Shown one piece after another: positions 975-62,911 of a stretch of DNA of 64,000 nucleotides. Source of the DNA: Candidatus Saccharimonadota bacterium (GTDB taxonomy: Bacteria; Patescibacteriota; Saccharimonadia; Saccharimonadales; Saccharimonadaceae); assembly GCA_905372785.1 (NCBI GenBank), contig CAJPQG010000002.1, forward strand, positions 57,166 to 121,165. Direction: 5' to 3'. A program made the translations under genes and the position numbers. The notes below the pieces were generated by a model. The model did not search any database and was not told the DNA's origin. It worked only from the letters and a program-made list of their open reading frames with translations. Position 1 is the first letter of the stretch. Each line of letters opens with the position of its first letter.

Positions 975-2642
975 ATGAAAAAGTTTTTTGATGTGATTCG
1001 TCGCTCACCAAAGCGTACCGCTGCAGTAGCGGTTGTCGCTGCGGCTGTAGCAGTACCAATTGCAGCAAATGCATGGGGACCATCGGACCGTCCGACATTC
1101 ACGTACGATAAACCAGCGAGTTATGTAACATTTAACTCAATGACGAACACGCCAAACTACGGTGATGAGCGTAATTTCGTGCGCGTAAAAGAGAGCGGTG
1201 CGGCTAATAATACCTACACTGATAATTTTGATCTTGTCCCAGGCAAGAAGTACACCGTTATGATGTACTACCACAACAACGCGGCTAGTAACCTAAACGA
1301 CGATGCGCATGGCCGTAAGGGTATTGCACAAAACGCAACCGCTCGTTTTGCAATGCCAGCAGCTGTAAAGAAGGGCGAATCAGCTCGCCTAAACGGCTTT
1401 ATTAGCGCTAGCAACGCAAAACCACAAATGGTATGGGACGAAGCATATGGTAAGGCTAGCCACGGAGACGTTGCACTACGTTACGTACCAGGAACTGCCA
1501 AAATCTTTAGCAATGGTGCAATAAATGGGCAGGCTCTTTCAGACAACCTGTTCAAAAATGGTACACCACTTGGCTACGACAAGCTTGATGGTAACCTGCC
1601 TGGCTGTAATCAATACGCTGGCTACATTACTTTTGAATTTATTGTAGATCAGCCAAACTTTAACATCAATAAGACTGTTTCAAAAGCAGGTGAGAACAAG
1701 TTTGCTGAAGATATTGCAGTAAATCCAAACGATGAAGTTGAATACAAGATTGAGTACCGAAACACCGGTACCGTGCAGCAAAACAATGTTGTCCTAAGCG
1801 ATCAGCTACCAAAGGGCGTGCAGTACGTTGCAGGCAGCACTAAGCTTGCTTCATCAAAGACCGGTGGTAAGCTAACTGCCGTTAATGAAAACAGCCTAGT
1901 AAACGGCGGCCTTAACCTTGGCTCATTTGCACCAAACTCGAACGCATTTGTAACCTTCCGTGCTAAGGTTGTTGACAATAATGCACTAGACGCTTGTGGT
2001 GTCAACACACTAACTAATATTGCAAAAGTCAGCACCGACAACGGCCAAAAGCAAGATACTGCTGTAGTAACCGTAACCAAGAAGTGTGACCAACCAGCGC
2101 CAAAGAAGATTAACGTTTGTGACTTGACTACAAAGAAGATCGTTGAAATCAACGAAAAAGACTTTGACAGCAAGAAACACTCAAAGAACGAAAAAGACTG
2201 TGCACAACAGCCTGCTAAAAAGCAGATTGAGGTATGTGATCTAACCACCAAGAAGGTTGTCACTATCGACGAGAGCGCATTTGATAGTAAAAAGCACTCA
2301 AAGAATCTTGCAGATTGTAAGACAAACCCTACCGTACCACCAACACCTCCAGTAACCCCTCCTACTCCAGGACAACCAACTGAGAAGAAAGTACAGGTAT
2401 GTGATAAGACCACTGGTCAAATCGTATCACTCAACGAAAAAGATGTTGACAGCAGCAAGCACACAACAGATACTGCTGCCTGCAACCCAACTCCAACTAC
2501 TCCAGTAAACCCAGCACCACCAGCGCCAAAGAATCCTGACGCGCTACCACAAACAGGTGCAGTAGGCCTAGCTGGCGTTGGTATTGGCGCAAGTGCTCTT
2601 ACCGCAGCAGCATTGTACGCTGTAACACGTAAGAAGAACTAG
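975..2642 (+). CDS. Sortase-anchored (LPXTG) cell-surface protein with a DUF11-like repeat domain and three tandem 2-Cys repeats
   Basis: The N-terminal signal peptide reads MKKFF..RRSPKRTAAVAVVAAAVAVPIAANA. The C-terminal LPQTG motif (2544-2558) is followed by a hydrophobic stretch and an RKKN tail. A GGAG RBS lies at about 961. Confidence 0.85.
   Translation: MKKFFDVIRRSPKRTAAVAVVAAAVAVPIAANAWGPSDRPTFTYDKPASYVTFNSMTNTPNYGDERNFVRVKESGAANNTYTDNFDLVPGKKYTVMMYYHNNAASNLNDDAHGRKGIAQNATARFAMPAAVKKGESARLNGFISASNAKPQMVWDEAYGKASHGDVALRYVPGTAKIFSNGAINGQALSDNLFKNGTPLGYDKLDGNLPGCNQYAGYITFEFIVDQPNFNINKTVSKAGENKFAEDIAVNPNDEVEYKIEYRNTGTVQQNNVVLSDQLPKGVQYVAGSTKLASSKTGGKLTAVNENSLVNGGLNLGSFAPNSNAFVTFRAKVVDNNALDACGVNTLTNIAKVSTDNGQKQDTAVVTVTKKCDQPAPKKINVCDLTTKKIVEINEKDFDSKKHSKNEKDCAQQPAKKQIEVCDLTTKKVVTIDESAFDSKKHSKNLADCKTNPTVPPTPPVTPPTPGQPTEKKVQVCDKTTGQIVSLNEKDVDSSKHTTDTAACNPTPTTPVNPAPPAPKNPDALPQTGAVGLAGVGIGASALTAAALYAVTRKKN
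2103..2485 (+). repeat. Three tandem ~38-aa coding repeats (K-K-x-x-V-C-D-x-T-T-x-x-I-V-x-(I/L)-(N/D)-E-x-x-(F/V)-D-S-x-K-H-(S/T)-...-C) separated by Pro-rich linkers
   Basis: The repeats are KKINVCDLTTKKIVEINEKDFDSKKHSKNEKDC, KKQIEVCDLTTKKVVTIDESAFDSKKHSKNLADC and KKVQVCDKTTGQIVSLNEKDVDSSKHTTDTAAC. Confidence 0.8.
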
Positions 2643-2666
2643 TCACACTAGAACGCTAATATAAAA

Positions 2667-2692
2667 CTGCCCTCTTCATGAGGGTAGTTTTT
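2667..2692 (+). terminator. Rho-independent terminator after the LPXTG gene
   Basis: The hairpin is ctgccctc/ttcat/gagggtag, followed by TTTTT. Confidence 0.6.
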
Positions 2693-2728
2693 ATGTTTTG
2701 CATAGGCCGCCCTAACCTACACATACAC

Positions 2729-2757
2729 AAAAACCCGAACGCTATTTGTCGTTCGGG
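2729..2757 (-). terminator. Rho-independent terminator after folD
   Basis: The hairpin is cccgaacg/..../cgttcggg, with an A-run on the + strand that reads as a U-run on the - strand. Confidence 0.55.
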
Positions 2758-2777
2758 TCTGCCATATGCACCTAATA

Positions 2778-3593
2778 TTACTGCGCTAGACCATCATCTT
2801 TCTGTAATCTTGCTGCATGCAATACATTTTCGAATAGTGAGGCGACCGTGAGTGGCCCCACTCCACCCTTCACCGGAGTAATTGCCACATCGTCGCGCTG
2901 CCTCACGCTATCTGCTACATCGCCCACGATACGGCCGTCCTCGGTGGCCGTACCTGCGTCAATAACGACCGCACGCTGGTTTACTAACTCATTCGTTATA
3001 AGCCCGGGTACGCCAGTGGCGGTAATAATAATATCATGCTCTGCTACTGAACTCAGACTATCGCCTTCTTCATAGGTCGTGATATCATAGCCATGCCCTC
3101 TGTACAATGCAGCTAATGGAGCCCCTACCAGACGTCCCTGGCCAATAATAGCAATCTTTTTGCCTGTCAGCGTCACGTTGTATCCCGTTACTAGCCAGTC
3201 AATCGCCTGAGCCGTCGCTGCTATAAACACGCTATCCGCACGCAGACCATCAACATCTTTTTTCGGAGGTATCGCCGCTACTAACTCATCAATATCTACA
3301 GACTCAAACGGCAACTGCACAATAATTCCATGCACCTCGCTGTCCTTAGCTAACTTCTGAAGCTCATCTATCACGGTGCCCTGCGTAGCAACAACTTCAC
3401 GAACGTCCACCGCGATATCATCGCCATAGCGCTGCTTTACCCTTAGGTAGCTTGTATTTACCGGGGACTTACCATCATGTACGATAGCAAGCGTCGGTAT
3501 AATCGCATGCTGCTGCCGCAAGTTTCGTGCCTGGCGTAGCTGGCGAACTTTAATAAAATCTACTAATTCCTGTCCGTTAAGTACTCTTGTCAT
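2778..3593 (-). CDS. folD: Bifunctional methylenetetrahydrofolate dehydrogenase/cyclohydrolase FolD
   Basis: The ORF matches FolD along its full length, with motifs VHGIIVQLP, VDGL, GKKIAIIGQGRLVGAPLA, ITPVKGGVGPLTVA. I chose the internal ATG (MTRVLNGQ) because the longer ORF start at 3623 would leave only 22 nt to the divergent gene. Confidence 0.9.
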   Translation of the reverse strand: MTRVLNGQELVDFIKVRQLRQARNLRQQHAIIPTLAIVHDGKSPVNTSYLRVKQRYGDDIAVDVREVVATQGTVIDELQKLAKDSEVHGIIVQLPFESVDIDELVAAIPPKKDVDGLRADSVFIAATAQAIDWLVTGYNVTLTGKKIAIIGQGRLVGAPLAALYRGHGYDITTYEEGDSLSSVAEHDIIITATGVPGLITNELVNQRAVVIDAGTATEDGRIVGDVADSVRQRDDVAITPVKGGVGPLTVASLFENVLHAARLQKDDGLAQ

Positions 3594-36510: not shown

Positions 36511-37431
36511 TTACGCGCCAATGCGATCACGACGCGGACGACGACGAGCGTTGCGCTCCATGTAGTCGATAATTTTACGAGCCACGTTGCGCCGCGTCAC
36601 CTTCTCGATACCAAACCCGGGGCTAGCATTCACCTCCAGCACCAATGGTCCGCGCGCTGAACGCATTAAGTCTACACCAGCTACCACCAGCCCCATAGCC
36701 TTGGCTGCCTTAACGGCCATTTTCTTCTCAGCAGGTGTTAGTTTTATTGCAGCGCCCTCGCCGCCCTTGTGTAGATTACTGCGGAAATCATCATCGAGGC
36801 TTTTGCGCTGCATGCTTGCCACTACTTGCGATCCAACCACAAACACACGAATATCAGTGCCAGCCGACTCTTTAATAAACTCTTGTAGCAGCACGTTGGT
36901 GCCGTCCGAGTTGGTGAGGTAAAAAGCCTGCAGTACCGATTTAGCCGCTTTCTTGGTCTCGGCCAGTACCACGCCATTGCCGTGTGTGCCGCGCGCCAAT
37001 TTAATAATCGCCGGAGTACCACCAATCTCATCCAGCAGCACATCAATATCTGTTGAGTTGCGGCTAAACACCGTCTTTGGAATAGACACCCCCGCTTTAG
37101 CTAGCAGCTGCGTGCTGCGAAGCTTATCTCGCGCCCGCATAATGGCAATTGAACGGTTCATGAAGTAGGCCCGTGGATGCGCCGTTTCAAGCTGCCGCAC
37201 AACCGCAGTGCCGTATTTTGTCATATTGCTAGAAATACGCGGGATAATCACATCAAAATTGCCAAGCTCCTCCCCTTGATACATCACCTTGGGCTTCTTC
37301 TCATCAATCGAGACATAGCAATTCTTATACTTAACTATTTTAACCTGGTGGCCGCGACGCTCAGCCTCTTCCTTTAGGCGTAAGGTAGAGTAGTTGATAT
37401 TACCGTTACTTAAAATTGCAATGTTCATCAA
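36511..37431 (-). CDS. rimK: RimK-family alpha-L-glutamate ligase (ATP-grasp)
   Basis: It is collinear with E. coli RimK as recalled: IAILS, RDKLRSTQLL, VVLAET, DIRVFVVG, DFRSNLHKGG, GVDLMRSARGPLVLEVNASPG. Confidence 0.92.
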   Translation of the reverse strand: MMNIAILSNGNINYSTLRLKEEAERRGHQVKIVKYKNCYVSIDEKKPKVMYQGEELGNFDVIIPRISSNMTKYGTAVVRQLETAHPRAYFMNRSIAIMRARDKLRSTQLLAKAGVSIPKTVFSRNSTDIDVLLDEIGGTPAIIKLARGTHGNGVVLAETKKAAKSVLQAFYLTNSDGTNVLLQEFIKESAGTDIRVFVVGSQVVASMQRKSLDDDFRSNLHKGGEGAAIKLTPAEKKMAVKAAKAMGLVVAGVDLMRSARGPLVLEVNASPGFGIEKVTRRNVARKIIDYMERNARRRPRRDRIGA

Positions 37432-38507
37432 TCTATCTCCTTACCGTGGTATTTCTTATAAAATGCGACTGGATCAGCCTGTAACTCAGCATTTAGCTCG
37501 TTTGATCGTGGCGTAGCAGTAGATACATCAAGTAGTGACTCGTCTTTCTCACGCACATCGACCAAAAACTTATGCTTCAGTGTACGGCGCCCAATCAGAA
37601 TTGGATACGTGTGGCTAGATCTATCAGAAAGCCCAAACCGCACCCATACTCGCTTACCAAGCACCCTTACTAAAAGACGCACGTAAAATTTTATCACCTT
37701 ATGCCCTGACGCACTCCTAACTGCAGCCACCGAATAGTCGCTCGTGCGGATCACCTCACCAGTATAATGCGGCGAGCCCTTTCCAAACAATACAAATTGC
37801 AGCGAGCCATCCTCGTTCATGTGAATATCGCTAGCCCATACCGCCGAGCTGTCCGCGCCAGTATCAATCTTGGCTGGCACTCCACGAACTGATGCACTAA
37901 AATCTATCATCGTATTATGGCCAATAACCGGCAAATCATGCACTGCGTCCGTTTCGACCCGGTGCAGTAAGGCCTCGGCAAACTGGTCGGCTGGCGTTGG
38001 TGTTACGCCAAATACCTCATATTCATCCAGTGCCAGTCGGTCTGTTATTTCGCACGCCGCATATGCCGCAGCATCCTCCAGTGAATCAGTTACAAAAAAT
38101 ACTTGGCACGCAAAAAGCTCTAATTCTGATGTTAGTTTCTGCAACTGTTTACCCAGCTGCTTTGGCAGCGAAATCTCCGTCCAGTCGGTATCCTCCTGCC
38201 GAGCCACCGCCACAATAACCTCGCCATCAATGACCAAACTGTGCACCCGCCACTGACTATCGCTACAACTCTCTGCCTGTGGTATACCCAGCTGCCCAAG
38301 TACCTGCGTTAGCGCACTTGAATTCCGCGTAATTGCCACCCCAGCCGAGCTTGAAAACTGACTTGTTTCGTTTTGCATATATTGCCAGCCTTGGTATTCA
38401 AACGACCACAGTAGTGGCTTAGATTGCAAAATTTGTACCGGTATGTCACGCCGCTCTAGGGCCTGCATAAGTAGATGCGCAGAATCTGGCAGCTGCCGCA
38501 TAGACAA
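37428..38507 (-). CDS. Two-domain protein: N-terminal degenerate ATP-grasp-like region plus C-terminal DUF785 (RimB-like retropepsin-fold protease)
   Basis: The C-terminal motifs VPAKIDTGADSSAVWA and YPILIGRRTL are typical of the 'ATP-dependent zinc protease' family PF05618. Its stop overlaps the rimK start (ATGA). Confidence 0.7.
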   Translation of the reverse strand: MSMRQLPDSAHLLMQALERRDIPVQILQSKPLLWSFEYQGWQYMQNETSQFSSSAGVAITRNSSALTQVLGQLGIPQAESCSDSQWRVHSLVIDGEVIVAVARQEDTDWTEISLPKQLGKQLQKLTSELELFACQVFFVTDSLEDAAAYAACEITDRLALDEYEVFGVTPTPADQFAEALLHRVETDAVHDLPVIGHNTMIDFSASVRGVPAKIDTGADSSAVWASDIHMNEDGSLQFVLFGKGSPHYTGEVIRTSDYSVAAVRSASGHKVIKFYVRLLVRVLGKRVWVRFGLSDRSSHTYPILIGRRTLKHKFLVDVREKDESLLDVSTATPRSNELNAELQADPVAFYKKYHGKEID

Positions 38508-38636
38508 AAGTCCTCCTCTGTGCCGCCAGAAAACTCTACCCTCACAGCGGCATTAGATTGCTATAGTATCTCACTTTATTATGTCATAGATACTATAAAA
38601 TGCAATAGTATTGTGTCGCCACCTTGTAGATTGTGT

Positions 38637-40415
38637 TTAATACCTATTATCTTCGATGTGGGCAGCCTCACGCACCGCTGCCTTTGCAACTGCCTCCGAT
38701 ATACGATAGCGAGCCTTTTTCTGCTCCTCAATGCGCCGCACCAGGTCTGCCTGCTCTGGCACGGTTGGATCAATCTTCGCCTCCAGCAGCCCATCGAGCC
38801 CGTCCGTATCCCCTTGCTCATACAACTCTACCATATAATCCATGGCCTTCATACGCCCGGTAAAGTAGTTTAGGTCTTTGTTGTAGGTTACCGGCACATT
38901 GTCTATACCGTGCTCAGCTAAATCGAGCTGGTTACCACGAAAAATACGTAGCACCTGACGATATGCAGTATCTTGAGATTTCTCAATCAGCTCATCGCTA
39001 ATCGTCGCTTGGTCTTCTCCCTGGGCCTTCTTGGCGTTCATAAGTACTGCGTAGCGCCATGTTAGTTCATACACGCTGCGAAAATCATGGCCCTGTTCTG
39101 CCAGCGCAATACCCAGCGGCTTAGCCAAATTAACAACCGTCCAACCTGGCTTCTCATCTGCCACCGAGGCTTCTACGAGCGTAGCAAAGCCTTCTTCAAA
39201 TACGCTATAGCTACTCCACTTGCCCTCATCGTCTTTAGTGTAAACACCCGTTCCCATGACTGGCAGTCCGGTTTCAAAACCATTCAAACTACGGCCGCCG
39301 TGTACGGCATATTCATGTAGTACCTTATGATACAGCGCTTCCGGCGTTTTAAACGGCGTTCGATTTTCACCAACGCGCACAGCTCGCATATTAGCATTCC
39401 ACGAGAGTGCATTTGCACCTGGTTTTACTTCCACCTGAACGCCGTGTTCATGGTTTGGATCATCACGATTAATAATATCTTCAAAAAATTCTACTATCTC
39501 AGCCGGGGTTGCGGTGTAATCTTGACCGTATTCCTCTTTCTTGTTTTGCCACTTGTCTTCAATTGCTTGGCGCATCCAGCCATAGCGTGCATTAAAGTGC
39601 TCGCCCACCCAGTCGAGCACCTTACCTGGCTCTCCTTCGTTAAGTTTTGGCAGCTCCTGCGATGACGTATACCCATCTTCTGTCTCAAACTCTCGTGGCA
39701 ATCCAGCTATCTCATAGTCGTTTAGCGTAAAGCCATTGTTTAACTCTGCATATAGCGCCATTGCCTGCTTGTCTCCCTCTAGATCACCACCCGGAGCCAG
39801 CCGACCACCAACTCGATTCCAGATCGTCCGCAAAATCGCATTACCATCCTTCTCGTCCAAGCGTCCGTACAGCTCTTGGTTCATCTGGCGTGATAGTTCT
39901 AGTTTCTCCCGCAGCTCAGCCTTACCCTCGTCATTAAGTTCGCTAATGCGCAATTTATTCGATAGCTCATTAATCTCAGCAAGGACCAGCCCATACTCTA
40001 ACGCTCGTTGCTGGTATCCAACAGTGCTCTCTACGGCTTCCCGGCGAGCTGGCTCGGCAAACACATCAGAGGCCTCCACCGCCTGATCCAACGCGCCACC
40101 TAGCTCATCATGCATGCGCTGCAGCTTCGAAGCCCCCTCACTGCTAAGCCCTGGGTATTCCAGCACTGGATTGCGCACCTCACCATTCATGAAAGCGTTC
40201 TTTACGTCTTCATCAAGTGCGTTATTTTCAAACGACGTATATATACCATAGCCAAGGCCCTCTAGCTTGCTCGGCGTTAAAATCTCCGCCACACTAGGCC
40301 TCGCAGAAAGCGGTTCACTCGTTTCGTATTGCCAATCATTTGCCTCGGCAGCCTCCTGCCACTCAGACTGATACTCTTGCGGGTCACGCCGCCCGATATG
40401 CTCTTCTCGCCTCAT
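38637..40415 (-). CDS. Hypothetical protein, putative DUF1704/MATCAP-like (QEGLA-motif) metallocarboxypeptidase
   Basis: HEYAVH (an HExxxH pattern, nt 39300-39317) is followed 35 aa later by FEEGFAT, which resembles the family's QEGLA motif. YNKDLNYFTG lies further downstream. The call rests on memory of the family signature and has not been verified. Confidence 0.4.
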   Translation of the reverse strand: MRREEHIGRRDPQEYQSEWQEAAEANDWQYETSEPLSARPSVAEILTPSKLEGLGYGIYTSFENNALDEDVKNAFMNGEVRNPVLEYPGLSSEGASKLQRMHDELGGALDQAVEASDVFAEPARREAVESTVGYQQRALEYGLVLAEINELSNKLRISELNDEGKAELREKLELSRQMNQELYGRLDEKDGNAILRTIWNRVGGRLAPGGDLEGDKQAMALYAELNNGFTLNDYEIAGLPREFETEDGYTSSQELPKLNEGEPGKVLDWVGEHFNARYGWMRQAIEDKWQNKKEEYGQDYTATPAEIVEFFEDIINRDDPNHEHGVQVEVKPGANALSWNANMRAVRVGENRTPFKTPEALYHKVLHEYAVHGGRSLNGFETGLPVMGTGVYTKDDEGKWSSYSVFEEGFATLVEASVADEKPGWTVVNLAKPLGIALAEQGHDFRSVYELTWRYAVLMNAKKAQGEDQATISDELIEKSQDTAYRQVLRIFRGNQLDLAEHGIDNVPVTYNKDLNYFTGRMKAMDYMVELYEQGDTDGLDGLLEAKIDPTVPEQADLVRRIEEQKKARYRISEAVAKAAVREAAHIEDNRY

Positions 40416-40501
40416 AATTTACGCTTTCTTTTTTGCACTATTCTTATTTTTATAGTATACCATATAAAAAATAGCCCTCTCCAAAAAGAGGACTACTCTG
40501 C

Positions 40502-41602
40502 TTAGCTAAACAAGCCACCTTTGGCGTCTCTGAATTCCTCCAGTAGTTGCCGCTGCTTTTTATTCAATCGTTTTGGTATCTCTACCGTCAAACGTACCAC
40601 GTGTGCCCCACGTTTATCGCCACGTGGATGTTTCACGCCATAGTTCGCAAGCCGGAAATCGGTGCCACTCTGCGTACCAGCCGGTACGCGCATAGTCACT
40701 TCTCCGTCAATCGTCAACACATCGATCTCTGTTCCCAGCGCCGCATCTACCATAGAAATTTTTTGCTCACTAAAGATTGTGTCGCCATCGCGGGTGAAGC
40801 GTTTATCTGGCTGCACTCGTACGTGAATATACAAATCACCAGGTTCACCACCGGCCAAAGCCTCGCCACGCCCGCTCAATCGAATCACAGCGCCATCTTC
40901 GATACCAGCCGGAATTTTTACAGTCAAAGACTGTCGACCCCGTTGTACGCCCTTGCCGTGGCACACGTGGCATTTCTCTTCTGGTACTTTGCCGCGACCA
41001 TCACAAGTTGGGCACATAATCTGCTGCTGCACCTGGCCAAAGAGTGAATTCATAACCCGCGTCTGCTTACCGCTACCCTGACAGTCTGGGCAGGTGTCTA
41101 GCTTGGTGCCTGGCTCTGCACCATCGCCATGGCAGTGCGGACATGTCTCGTCCACTGTGGCAGCCACTTCCTGCTCGGTGCCAAACACCGACTCTTTAAA
41201 GGAAATCGTTGTCTCTACCTCTAGGTCCTGCCCACGAGTCTGGCGCCCAGCACCTCCAGCTGCACCGCCAAAAAACTGCCCAAAAATATCACTAAAATCA
41301 AACCCAGCACCAGCGCCGCCAGCAAAGCCGCCAAAGCCTTCGAACGGGTTGCCACCATAGCTCTGGCCACCGCCAGCCTGACTACCATCATATCCCGCAT
41401 GTCCAAACTGGTCATATCGGGCTCGTTTCTGCTGGTCTTTCAGCACCTCATAAGCTTCATTAACTTCTTTAAATTTAGCCTCATCACCATCACTTTTGTC
41501 TGGATGGTATTGCACCGCCTTTTTGCGAAATGCCCGTTTTATCTCATCTGCGCTTGCCGTTTTTGGCACGCCTAACACTTCATAATAATCTCGTTTACTC
41601 AT
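40502..41602 (-). CDS. dnaJ: Chaperone DnaJ
   Basis: The protein has a J domain (HPD), a G/F region, and four CxxCxG zinc-finger repeats. Confidence 0.95.
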   Translation of the reverse strand: MSKRDYYEVLGVPKTASADEIKRAFRKKAVQYHPDKSDGDEAKFKEVNEAYEVLKDQQKRARYDQFGHAGYDGSQAGGGQSYGGNPFEGFGGFAGGAGAGFDFSDIFGQFFGGAAGGAGRQTRGQDLEVETTISFKESVFGTEQEVAATVDETCPHCHGDGAEPGTKLDTCPDCQGSGKQTRVMNSLFGQVQQQIMCPTCDGRGKVPEEKCHVCHGKGVQRGRQSLTVKIPAGIEDGAVIRLSGRGEALAGGEPGDLYIHVRVQPDKRFTRDGDTIFSEQKISMVDAALGTEIDVLTIDGEVTMRVPAGTQSGTDFRLANYGVKHPRGDKRGAHVVRLTVEIPKRLNKKQRQLLEEFRDAKGGLFS

Positions 41603-41782: not shown

Positions 41783-43666
41783 CTACTTTTTGTCTTTGTC
41801 AACAACTTCGCCTTCAACAGGACCGTCTTCTTTTTTGTCGTCACCCGACTCGTCCTTTGCGGCTTCCTGGTACAACTTAGCGCCAATTGGCATGATCTTC
41901 GTCTGCAGTTCTTTAGCAGCTGCCTCAAGCTCTTCCTTAGTTGCCTCGGCGTTATCTTGCACCTTCTTTGCATCTGCAACAGCCTCTTCGATAGCCTTCT
42001 TGTCATCTTCAGAGATTTTGTCCTTAAACTCTTCTGGCATCTTTGCGGCTTGGTAGATGGCGTTCTCTAGCTCATTGCGAGCATCGATAGCCTCACGCTT
42101 CTTCTTATCCTCATCAGCGTGCATCTCGGCGTCCTTTTGAGCCTTTTCAATCTCTTCTTTGCTCATGTTGCCGCTTTCCTGAATGGTAATCGACTGCTCT
42201 TTGCCAGTGCCCTTGTCTTTAGCAGTAACGTTTAGTAGTCCGTTAGCATCAAGGTTAAAGGTCACCTCAATCTGCGGCACGCCACGTCGTGCTGGTGCAA
42301 TGCCATCAAGGATAAAGCGGCCAAGGCTCTTGTTATCAGCAGCCATTTCGCGCTCACCTTGCAGCACGTGAATCTCTACCTGTGGCTGGTTGTCAGCTGC
42401 CGTAGAAAATATCTGGCTCTTACTGGTTGGAATCGTGCTATTGCGCTCGATTAGCTTTGTTGTTACGCCACCCATGGTTTCAATACCAAGGCTCAGTGGA
42501 GTCACGTCAAGCAGCAGCACGTCTTTCACGTCACCAGTTAACACACCACCTTGAATTGCTGCACCGACTGAAACAACCTCATCTGGGTTTACACCCTGCA
42601 TTGGGTCTTTGCCAAAGATCTGCTTTACCTTTTCTACAACTGCTGGCATGCGGGTCATACCACCAACAAGCACTACAGAATTGATATCACTTGGCTTCAG
42701 CCCAGCATCCTTCAATGCTTTTTCAACTGGATCTGCCAGACGCTCTACCAAATCTTTCACAAGTTCTTCTAGCTTTGCGCGTGTCAGTGTGTACTCAAAG
42801 TGCTTTGGACCATCGTCATCTGCAGTAATAAATGGCAAGTTTACTTCATACGAACTGGTGCTTGAAAGTTCTTTCTTAGCTTTTTCTGCTTCATCCTTCA
42901 AACGCTGCATTGCCGCCTTATCGTTGCGCAGGTCAATGCCCTCTTCCTTCTTAAATACCTCTAGGAAGTGGTTCACGATGCGGTTGTCAAAGTCCTCACC
43001 ACCAAGGTGTGTATCACCATTGGTTGACAGCACTTCAAATACACCATCACCAAGCTCTAGGATTGAGATGTCGAACGTACCACCACCAAGGTCGAATACG
43101 GCAATCTTTTCATCCTTACCGCCCTCGAGGCCATAAGCCAAAGCTGCAGCCGTTGGCTCGTTAATAATACGCTTCACTTCAAGACCGGCAATCTTACCTG
43201 CGTCTTTGGTTGCCTGGCGCTGTGCATCGTCAAAGTATGCTGGTACGGTAATCACCGCTTCAGTTACTTTTTCACCCAAAAATGCCTCAGCATCAGCCTT
43301 GATCTTTGCCAAAATCATTGCTGAAATTTCTTCAGGAGTGTAGCTCTTATCGCCAAGTTTAACCTTTACGCCACTACCAGCCTGCTCAATCGCAAACGGC
43401 AAGATATCAATATCCTTCTGAACTTCTTTGTCGCTAAATTTACGGCCAATCAGGCGCTTTACACCATAAATCGTGTTCTTAGGGTTAGTCACACGCTGGC
43501 GCTGAGCAACTTGCCCTACCAAACGGTCTCCTTTTTTATTCACCGCCACAACACTTGGAGTGGTGCGGTTACCTTCTGCGTTTGCAATCACTTCCGGCTT
43601 ACCAGCCACCATATATGAAAACGCACTGTTGGTCGTACCTAGGTCAATTCCAATAATCTTTCCCAT
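41783..43666 (-). CDS. dnaK: Chaperone DnaK (Hsp70)
   Basis: Motifs present are [17 protein letters not shown] and the rest of a full-length Hsp70. Confidence 0.97.
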
Positions 43667-61879: not shown

Positions 61880-62911
61880 ATGAGGCGTATGAGGGGTGAA
61901 CATACAAAATACGACAAGCTAATACAAACTGATCGCGAGGCCTTCCGCGCCGAAGCAATGGCTGCGCTGCACGCCTTTGATATTGCCGACCGCACGATTG
62001 CTAGCAGCATGGAAACAGGCAAGATAACAATGGTTGACCTACTAAAAGCCTGGTACGAACAATTGCAGCCGCTACTTTCCGACCTAGAAAAAGAGCGTAC
62101 CAGCCGTCGATTCCGCACCATGATTGGCCACCACCTGCAAGTGGATGAGCCGCGAGCACAAGAGGCGATCGACACCATGATACAAAATCGTAAACTTGAA
62201 CTTGTCAGCGGCGTGATCGATCGGCTATACGACGGGGAGCTACACAGCGAACAAGCCCGCCAGGCGGCTTGTACCTTTTTTGCGCAGCCAAGCGATTATA
62301 TCAATACCTTTACTGAACGGTATGGTAAATTCGTTGAAATTATGGAAGCTGCTGAAGCTCATAACGTTACGCTGCTCGACCCACACGGCAACTGGCTAGA
62401 GCGCGGCCGTGCGGCTATAGCGATTCACAATGAACGACAACACTTAATACAAGATGAAGACACAAGACTGGCAGATATTGATCAAGCGCTCAGAACACTT
62501 CAAGAACGTAGTAACCATCTGGTGCAGCGAATTGCAGACCACAACTGGAGCTTTGCTGATGTGCTTGCGCTGTATGAATCATATCAGCAGCAACTTGGTA
62601 GCCTTAAGCAAGTAACCGCCGTTTCCCCTACCGAGCAATTGGCCGTTTTTGAGCAAGTGGCTAAGCCATTTTTAGCTAAAGTCGCCCACAATGTTGGCTC
62701 ACTGAACCAACACACGAATCTGAAAGCAGCCAAGCAAGCTCGCGATGAAGCAGCCAACTTACTACTTGAAGTGTTCGATCTTTCACCAAGTGAACGCCGC
62801 CAACTCTTTTTAGATATTCAGAACTACATGAAACTCACTCGTGAACGTGACCTCATCCTTGTTGTGCAGCGCAATCGCGAGCAATTTCTCGCCAAACAGC
62901 GTGATGAATAG
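61880..62911 (+). CDS. Hypothetical all-helical / coiled-coil protein
   Basis: It is a clean 343-aa ORF with no recognisable motif. Confidence 0.5.
   Translation: MRRMRGEHTKYDKLIQTDREAFRAEAMAALHAFDIADRTIASSMETGKITMVDLLKAWYEQLQPLLSDLEKERTSRRFRTMIGHHLQVDEPRAQEAIDTMIQNRKLELVSGVIDRLYDGELHSEQARQAACTFFAQPSDYINTFTERYGKFVEIMEAAEAHNVTLLDPHGNWLERGRAAIAIHNERQHLIQDEDTRLADIDQALRTLQERSNHLVQRIADHNWSFADVLALYESYQQQLGSLKQVTAVSPTEQLAVFEQVAKPFLAKVAHNVGSLNQHTNLKAAKQARDEAANLLLEVFDLSPSERRQLFLDIQNYMKLTRERDLILVVQRNREQFLAKQRDE

Follow-up and report, generated by a model that had tools for sequence, protein, structure and literature searches.

Described glutamate-tail systems and the Saccharibacterial locus

RimK adds α-linked glutamate to ribosomal protein S6 at its C terminus and makes poly-α-glutamate, which in vitro is also formed as a free polymer (PMC11957791). 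RimB is an endopeptidase specific for poly-glutamate that stimulates RimK (PMC11957791), and the Pseudomonas enzyme leaves a stub of ~4 glutamates (PMC10092738). Among bacteria, S6 glutamylation under RimK and RimB is the one well-studied parallel to the polyglutamylation code of eukaryotes, and it has no described carboxypeptidase partner. The eukaryotic MATCAP/TMCP proteins are carboxypeptidases that remove C-terminal tyrosine and glutamate from tubulin tails and shorten polyglutamate chains (PMC10499314). The glutamates of their HExxxH and EEG motifs are both essential: E281 of TMCP1 is catalytic and the E364A variant of TMCP2 is inactive (PMC10499314). This work concerns three minus-strand open reading frames (ORFs) within a 64-kb window of an oral Saccharibacteria contig, the window being the whole stretch of DNA analyzed. 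They encode a 592-amino acid (aa) putative zinc peptidase of the MATCAP/DUF1704 family, a 359-aa protein with a RimB-like retropepsin domain, and RimK.

The biology of RimK and RimB and the DUF1704 label are already known. What is new is the extension of a RimK/RimB-type system by a MATCAP-family peptidase, by extra or degenerate ligases, and by what would be a pseudo-ligase docking domain. A literature search that did not take in the amidoligase study of Iyer et al. 2009 returned no paper linking DUF1704, QEGLA, TIGR02421, PF08014, or the MATCAP family with RimK or ATP-grasp ligases, and the literature mentions of PF08014 that it found were Plasmodium gene identifiers. Carboxypeptidases appear nowhere in the RimB/RimK papers examined, and metalloproteases appear there only as an inhibitor control.

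The locus resembles the Pseudomonas RimA-RimB-RimK system (PMC4741518, PMC7343187, PMC11957791) in the coupling of RimK to an upstream PF05618 retropepsin with a DTG motif, and hybrid ligase/retropepsin proteins are known in both the Pseudomonas-type and the Saccharibacterial contexts. It differs from that system as follows. The window locus has no RimA (EAL) gene, and its retropepsin carries a dead ATP-grasp N-domain, with the ligase remnant placed before the protease; the described RimBK hybrid has the opposite order. The Saccharibacterial block adds a third, zinc-dependent MATCAP-family peptidase, and related Saccharibacterial clusters contain up to three ATP-grasp ligases.

The closest characterized relatives of the peptidase are MATCAP1/TMCP1 (KIAA0895L) and TMCP2 (KIAA0895) (7Z5G/7Z5H/7Z6S; PMC10499314), which share PF08014, the atypical HExxxH, and the downstream EEG glutamate. 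Both are set against ATP-grasp tail ligases: MATCAP against TTL and TTLL in eukaryotes, and the window peptidase, as judged by genomic association, against RimK-like ligases. The window protein has an extra N-terminal helical region of ~250 residues, and its HExxxH-EEG loop spans 40 residues compared with 35 in MATCAP. Its substrate must differ from that of MATCAP because the bacterium has no microtubules. The classical tubulin deglutamylases, the cytosolic carboxypeptidases CCP1-6 (M14), have the activity proposed here, the stepwise removal of glutamate, but are unrelated in fold and family (M14 versus a MATCAP-type zincin). A Pfam scan of the 592-aa protein gave no M14 signal.

The peptidase, the retropepsin fusion, and RimK

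The peptidase gene (38637..40415, minus strand) starts with ATG and encodes a putative carboxypeptidase. The Pfam scan matched PF08014 (MATCAP, formerly DUF1704) at 30.7 bits against a gathering score of 27 (E = 2.1e-7), the match spanning only profile positions 259-321 of 365. TIGR02421 (QEGLA), the 'flavohemoglobin expression-modulating QEGLA motif protein' model of Proteobacteria, aligned with residues 360-530 and included both motifs (E = 1e-5). The score of 24.6 bits is far under the equivalog cutoff of 338.65 bits, and the 592-aa protein is therefore placed in the same superfamily only, outside the TIGR02421 equivalog. The motifs are HEYAVH at residues 367-372 (39300..39317, minus strand), the HExxxH zinc-binding and catalytic motif, and FEEGFA at residues 406-411 (39183..39200, minus strand), the EEG/QEGLA motif with the presumed third metal ligand. 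E408 sits 40 residues past the catalytic glutamate E368. The original prediction had likened the protein to DUF1704/MATCAP and proposed PF08014 and TIGR02421 searches, with a lack of any significant hit to count against it. The searches returned a significant match, with PF08014 above its gathering score and the motifs in register with human MATCAP.

A word-indexed protein search gave 14 relatives, and a precomputed PF08014 annotation is present on 13 of these 14 close homologs. An exhaustive profile search retrieved 946 cluster representatives at E ≤ 0.001. A large protein search with a 98-sequence profile returned only the known close homologs and one extra fragment, the word index limiting its reach. 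H367, E368, H372, G390, E408, and R490 are invariant in the 98-sequence family alignment, and conservation is ≥90% at E407 and G409. Conservation on this scale indicates that the HExxxH and EEG motifs are not chance occurrences. PF08014 is matched by 91 of the 98 members at E ≤ 0.001 (best E = 9.5e-26).

The 98-sequence profile (A3) matched the Protein Data Bank (PDB) chains of human MATCAP (KIAA0895L) with E = 2.8e-9 for 7Z5G/7Z5H and 3.9e-7 for 7Z6S. The alignment is in register across HExxxH, EEGLA, FRxxF, RG-T, and KDxxY-x-G; the family consensus HExGVH aligns with HEIGTH of human MATCAP, and the FEEGFA motif with EEGLA. Searches of the PDB sequences with the single protein and with the shallow profiles A1 and A4 gave no MATCAP match, and the relationship, as judged from these profiles, is transitive via the broader family. 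The Saccharibacterial clade profile (A4) aligned with a group of ~450-aa bacterial DUF1704 proteins (A6) over 422 columns with an hhalign probability of 100% (E = 3.7e-72). Members of the A6 group score 45-77 bits with PF08014, and the group matches human MATCAP 7Z5G with E = 8.6e-8. The DUF1704 assignment itself is not new because NCBI already labels one A6 member 'DUF1704 domain-containing protein [Candidatus Saccharibacteria bacterium]'. These results identify the 592-aa protein as a predicted genuine but divergent MATCAP/DUF1704 zinc peptidase.

The 592-aa protein has clade-specific N- and C-terminal extensions relative to other Saccharibacterial homologs (~500 aa), and no signal peptide is evident in it by eye. 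AlphaFold2 models were built on 7-sequence alignments. The full-length model has a predicted local distance difference test score (pLDDT) of 73 and a predicted template modeling score of 0.75, with low confidence at residues 1-38, and the model of residues 250-570 has a pLDDT of 77. The predicted order of elements is zincin-like in both models: three strands, the HExxxH helix, and the EEG helix. Two unusual family members were seen elsewhere. In a divergent protein without a Pfam hit on record (L062 5607-7001, plus strand; E = 3e-69 to the family profile), the family HExxxH is replaced by HEVLH, a canonical HExxH, and FEEGF is kept. L034 has a tandem arrangement (707-2242 and 2666-3556, plus strand) in which a shorter MATCAP-family paralog (296 aa, PF08014 57.5 bits) is placed between the main peptidase gene and an ATP-grasp gene.

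The middle gene (37428..38507, minus strand) encodes a fusion of an ATP-grasp remnant with a RimB-like retropepsin. PF05618 matched residues 208-321 (37545..37886, minus strand) at 43.7 bits against a cutoff of 27 in the Pfam scan. The domain contains the catalytic D215-T-G of a retropepsin-like aspartic peptidase within AKIDTGADSS (residues 212-221; 37845-37874, minus strand), and the assignment to the RimB family in the original prediction agrees with both. The RimB model NF052261 scored 38.6 bits against a cutoff of 200 and RloA3 slightly higher (41 against 210). Both are far under their cutoffs, and the protein is therefore termed RimB-like, not a RimB equivalog. K213, D215, T216, G217, and A218 are invariant in the retropepsin alignment (A2). 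The middle protein is 97-98% identical in L001, L002, and L012.

The N-terminal ~195 residues (37923..38507, minus strand) are the remnant of a second RimK-like ATP-grasp ligase, as traced by hhalign and MAFFT. This half of the protein aligns with the N terminus of 481-491-aa ATP-grasp plus retropepsin fusions of other Saccharibacteria. Residues 3-80 matched the ligase-2 family (A7) with an hhalign probability of 94.4% (E = 9e-8), and pairwise BLAST found only collinear fragments beyond them. The MAFFT alignment shows that the ATP-binding core is deleted in the middle protein and the pre-ATP-grasp N-domain is kept; the A7-invariant columns K106, H112/G113/G115, and E289/N291 have no counterpart. 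No ATP-grasp Pfam or other hidden Markov model (HMM) matched the middle protein. With the core deleted and no ATP-grasp model matching, the N-terminal half is therefore a catalytically dead ligase remnant. Comparison with L002 gave 28 synonymous and 2 nonsynonymous differences in this half, corresponding to a ratio of nonsynonymous (dN) to synonymous (dS) substitution rates of 0.02. Decaying junk was rejected as an explanation on the basis of this value, and strong purifying selection on a dead domain points to a retained noncatalytic role. The N-domain is likely a co-opted pseudoenzyme domain, and it would serve as a docking or substrate-recognition module for the retropepsin.

Ligase 2 itself, encoded between the peptidase and retropepsin genes, varies among the Saccharibacterial loci. 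It is intact in L013, L018, L023, L026-L028, L034, L042, and L043, but at least 10 metagenomic loci (L014, L017, L019, L020, L022, L024, L025, L029, L040, and L044) have it either as two separate ORFs or as one short fragment. The split and shortened copies suggest recurrent pseudogenization or assembly frameshifts.

The third gene, rimK (36511..37428, minus strand), encodes 305 aa from ATG 37428 or 306 aa from TTG 37431. Its product scored 198.8 bits with PF08443 (cutoff 21), 108.7 with PF18030 (cutoff 26.4), and 258.8 with TIGR00768 (cutoff 143.4), the last of which bears out the naming of the gene as rimK in the original prediction. The S6--L-glutamate ligase equivalog model NF007764 aligned over the full length (2-298) at 322.1 bits, just under its cutoff of 331. 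By these models the third protein is assigned as a full-length RimK-family α-L-glutamate ligase. Canonical RimK is 64-85% identical across most Saccharibacterial loci, with dN/dS of 0.006-0.06.

Substitution rates were measured between the window and three close relatives, where dS is uniform at ~0.25. Constraint is strongest on rimK, with a dN/dS of 0.006, and the middle gene has 0.03-0.04. For the peptidase as a whole dN/dS is 0.24-0.29, against 0.05 in the segment around the catalytic motifs, and the protein is only ~87% identical between strains compared with 95-99.7% for the flanking genes. Residues ~200-260 are hypervariable (dN 0.30, dS 0.82). Recombination may account for this, or diversifying pressure on part of the protein surface. 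Other lineages have a peptidase dN/dS of 0.07-0.18 versus 0.02-0.06 for RimK. The peptidase evolves fastest in the clade with the dead ligase 2, and its ORF is intact in every close relative. The rates indicate that the peptidase gene is functional and under purifying selection, yet is the fastest-evolving member of the set.

Gene order in the direction of transcription is dnaK (41783-43666, minus strand), dnaJ (40502-41602, minus strand), the 592-, 359-, and 306-aa ORFs, and then the convergent proS. All three ORFs lie co-directionally downstream of dnaJ as originally described, and the quoted motifs HEYAVH, EEGFA, AKIDTGADSS, and YPILIGRRTL were each recovered by translation. dnaJ ends 86 bp upstream of the peptidase gene. 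In a consensus scan, the spacer (40416..40501, minus strand) showed one weak sigma-70-like match (TGGAGA-18-TATACT) but lacked any terminator-like site. A spacer of 129 bp (38508..38636, minus strand) separates the peptidase and retropepsin genes and contains a weak promoter-like match (GCGACA-16-TATAGT) and a GGAGGA before the start codon. The scan of the region for promoter and terminator consensus sites found a count of promoter-like sites not above the shuffled expectation. The 129-bp spacer and the promoter-like site are weak evidence for a possible transcription of the peptidase gene apart from retropepsin-rimK. The GGAGGA is 3 nt upstream of the TTG of the middle gene but 9 nt upstream of ATG 38501, and translation more likely starts at the latter because of this spacing. 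The resulting 357-aa protein has the length of P0162, a 98%-identical homolog.

The retropepsin and rimK genes do overlap, although not by the ATGA first reported: the junction TTGATG (37426..37431, minus strand), read directly from the sequence, is ...GAT TGA TG AAC.... The retropepsin stop codon TGA shares 1 nt with rimK ATG 37428 (TGATG) or 4 nt with the upstream TTG (TTGA), and a GGAG sits 8 nt upstream of the ATG. The retropepsin-rimK junction is one of translational coupling.

Gene neighborhood in Saccharibacteria and Alphaproteobacteria

Loci with peptidase relatives were collected from one-genome-per-species contigs and from metagenome contigs, the latter scanned with a 21-sequence alignment. 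This gave 49 loci, and all those carrying organism names are Saccharibacteria. Forty of the 49 have enough downstream sequence to be informative. rimK lies beside the peptidase gene in 33 of these 40, always on the same strand, and in 31 of the 33 only the retropepsin and 0-2 further RimK-like ATP-grasp genes (intact or split) lie between the two. The arrangement holds down to 25-30% peptidase identity. The ATP-grasp/retropepsin block has 1-3 ATP-grasp ligases across the Saccharibacterial loci, and the retropepsin is directly upstream of rimK in every locus showing both (~33).

dnaJ is seen in 24 loci, and in 15 of them the peptidase gene is also <400 bp from it. The peptidase gene is downstream of the rim block in L006, L007, and L031, where the block separates it from dnaJ; its distance from rimK is 46 bp in L006 and ~1-1.3 kb in L007 and L031. 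A 2.5-3.4-kb insert parts the peptidase from dnaJ, not from the rim block, in L013, L016, L022, L037, and L040. L015 has the peptidase and an ATP-grasp gene with a 10-bp gap; dnaJ, the retropepsin, and rimK are all missing from the ~1 kb upstream and 8 kb downstream covered. The L015 ATP-grasp gene (2470-3414, plus strand) scored 29.1 with the Pfam TTL model (gathering 20.1) and higher, 41.5, with the RimK model. The original prediction had named linkage to dnaJ rather than rimK as the outcome that would tell against it. The peptidase is tied to the rim block as tightly as to dnaJ or more so, and since it stays with the block when the order changes, the linkage is not to dnaJ in preference to rimK. 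The peptidase gene in Saccharibacteria is preferentially kept beside the ligase/retropepsin block and co-directional with it.

Rim clusters were sampled independently via retropepsin homologs. The peptidase is present in 3 of these 7 clusters (L055, L060, and, as a divergent copy, L062), each time immediately upstream of the rim block. The peptidase is facultative or dispensable for rim clusters. Lone peptidase copies were considered as a separate paralog clade and this was rejected, as they are scattered among the linked copies in the neighbor-joining tree; the scatter implies repeated loss of linkage.

Several features accompany the rim block in other loci. DUF192 (PF02643) directly follows rimK in many Saccharibacterial loci (L013 11903-12391, L055 9423-9905, L060 9479-9982, and L062 9298-9777), and in the window proS converges on rimK instead. 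A divergent GGDEF gene (L057 6086-6739 and L058 6014-6766, both minus strand) stands at the junction in two loci without the peptidase, between dnaJ and a RimB-RimK-like hybrid plus RimK pair; it recalls the cyclic di-GMP control (RimA) of the Pseudomonas system. Near-identical peptidases occur in different contexts in L031, where rimK is 1.3 kb upstream, and L033, where there is none within 5 kb upstream. This contrast reflects either a recent rearrangement or an assembly difference.

DUF1704 genes also adjoin ATP-grasp genes in another phylum. On plasmids of Aminobacter, Mesorhizobium, and Ensifer, a QEGLA/DUF1704 gene (~620 aa) is followed within ~10 bp by a GshB-like ATP-grasp gene ('glutathione synthetase') (L051 3983-7727, L052 2977-6674, and L054 3444-6664). 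N-formylglutamate amidohydrolase precedes the DUF1704 gene in the two annotated records (L051 and L052, Aminobacter and Mesorhizobium). The alphaproteobacterial operon differs from the Saccharibacterial block in having no retropepsin and no RimK, its partner ligase being GshB-like, and the Pseudoalteromonas DUF1704 copy stands alone. The alphaproteobacterial pairing is independent support for an association between peptidase and ligase.

A putative tail-editing system and competing explanations

With somewhat more confidence than doubt, the cluster is read here as a three-part editing system for α-linked glutamate tails. RimK, the writer, would extend a C-terminal poly-α-glutamate tail, which, by analogy with E. 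coli and Pseudomonas, would be that of S6. The retropepsin would cut the tail internally. The MATCAP-like enzyme would act as an exopeptidase that takes residues one by one off an acidic C terminus, and this step would erase the stub, tune the tail length, and/or turn released oligo-glutamate into free glutamate. The likeliest role of the peptidase is thus that of a carboxypeptidase that trims or recycles RimK-made α-glutamate tails and complements the RimB-like endopeptidase.

A number of observations weigh against this assignment. To our knowledge, no bacterial member of the peptidase family has been biochemically characterized. Foldseek searches of the PDB with both AlphaFold2 models, each built on a 7-sequence alignment, gave no match below E 0.1, and MATCAP is absent among the 50 matches listed per model. 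A search for rpsF, the gene for S6, with tblastn and a small S6 HMM, based on the S6 sequences of E. coli, B. subtilis, and T. thermophilus, located no copy in the window or in L001-L049. The peptidase dN of 0.07 compared with 0.001-0.011 for its neighbors at equal dS is compatible with relaxed constraint. The 129-bp spacer with its promoter-like site suggests that co-transcription of the peptidase with retropepsin-rimK is not required. Where both flanks reach ≥3.5 kb (19 loci), rimK and dnaJ are equally frequent, each being present in 14. The peptidase is absent from 4 of the 7 independently sampled rim clusters (L057, L058, L061, and L063), and at least 8 loci have a lone peptidase with no ATP-grasp gene nearby. 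The dnaK-dnaJ...rim...comEC backbone is syntenic without the peptidase too, as in L057 and L058, so part of the conservation is synteny. The alphaproteobacterial partners, N-formylglutamate amidohydrolase and the GshB-like ligase, hint at small-molecule substrates. A scan of the window ORFs for acidic C termini and poly-glutamate runs that would mark other substrates found none convincing; the ORF at 61880-62911 ends ...RDE.

The alphaproteobacterial partners are typical of small-molecule chemistry and lead to the alternative that survives best, although it is unlikely: a ligase-coupled peptidase with a nonribosomal substrate. The products made and turned over by the cluster would then be free peptides (oligo- or poly-amino acids) or a small glutamyl metabolite, and the peptidase would serve as their catabolic or salvage carboxypeptidase. 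RimK does make free poly-α-glutamate in vitro with stimulation by RimB, and related loci place 1-2 extra ATP-grasp ligases of unassigned specificity between the peptidase and the retropepsin. The pairing of peptidase and ATP-grasp gene alone in L015 and a GNAT acetyltransferase inside the L055 cluster also fit such products. This explanation is opposed by the canonical RimK, which is the most conserved member of the block and scores near the S6-ligase equivalog threshold (322 versus 331), and by the characterized eukaryotic family members, which act on protein C termini (PMC10499314).

The proximity of dnaJ raises a second alternative, synteny without shared function, in which a general cytoplasmic metallopeptidase for DnaK/DnaJ proteostasis or peptide nutrition happens to sit at the dnaJ/rim junction. 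The short distance to dnaJ in 15 of 24 loci and the missing terminator-like site after dnaJ are consistent with it, as are the backbone that persists without the peptidase, the lone copies, and the fast protein evolution. Other peptidases (M3 and C1-like) are also found at this junction. The gene nevertheless follows the rim/ATP-grasp block, not dnaJ, wherever the order changes (the nine rearranged loci L006, L007, L013, L015, L016, L022, L031, L037, and L040), and the independent alphaproteobacterial DUF1704-ATP-grasp pairing has no dnaJ nearby. Synteny alone is judged slightly less probable again than a nonribosomal substrate.

It is highly improbable that the peptidase is a noncatalytic zincin or a zincin-like regulator (for example an ImmA/IrrE-type sensor), or that its gene is in decay in this lineage after the loss of ligase 2. 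The weak Foldseek matches, all zincins (ACE, anthrax LF, M32 carboxypeptidases, selecase/jannalysin, and ImmA/IrrE-like 6CYY/6CZ6 and 3DTI), do include such regulators, and the dN/dS of 0.24-0.29 in the clade of the window versus 0.07-0.18 elsewhere coincides with ligase 2 inactivation. Against this, none of the metal-binding and catalytic residues varies, every close relative retains an intact ORF, dN/dS is far under 1 (0.05 at the active site), and the Pfam scan found no helix-turn-helix partner or domain.

The tail-editing assignment can be extended further, as a tentative proposal that we regard as improbable. An ancient prokaryotic MATCAP/ATP-grasp writer/eraser module may underlie these operons, with a graded tail code in Saccharibacteria, on S6 or another protein, that would draw on up to three ligases and both an endo- and an exopeptidase. 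The TTL(L)/MATCAP antagonism on tubulin would then descend from such an operon and would not have been assembled de novo.

If the three-part editing system is correct, bacterial DUF1704 proteins, which form hundreds of sequence clusters without an established biochemical function, would gain a testable substrate class. The dead ligase domain on the retropepsin, held under strong selection, would be a ready-made case of pseudoenzyme co-option. The antagonism of ligase and MATCAP known from tubulin would already be present as a bacterial operon. An exopeptidase step would be added to the RimK cycle, for stub removal or glutamate recycling, and such a step would be attractive for an epibiont with minimal biosynthesis.

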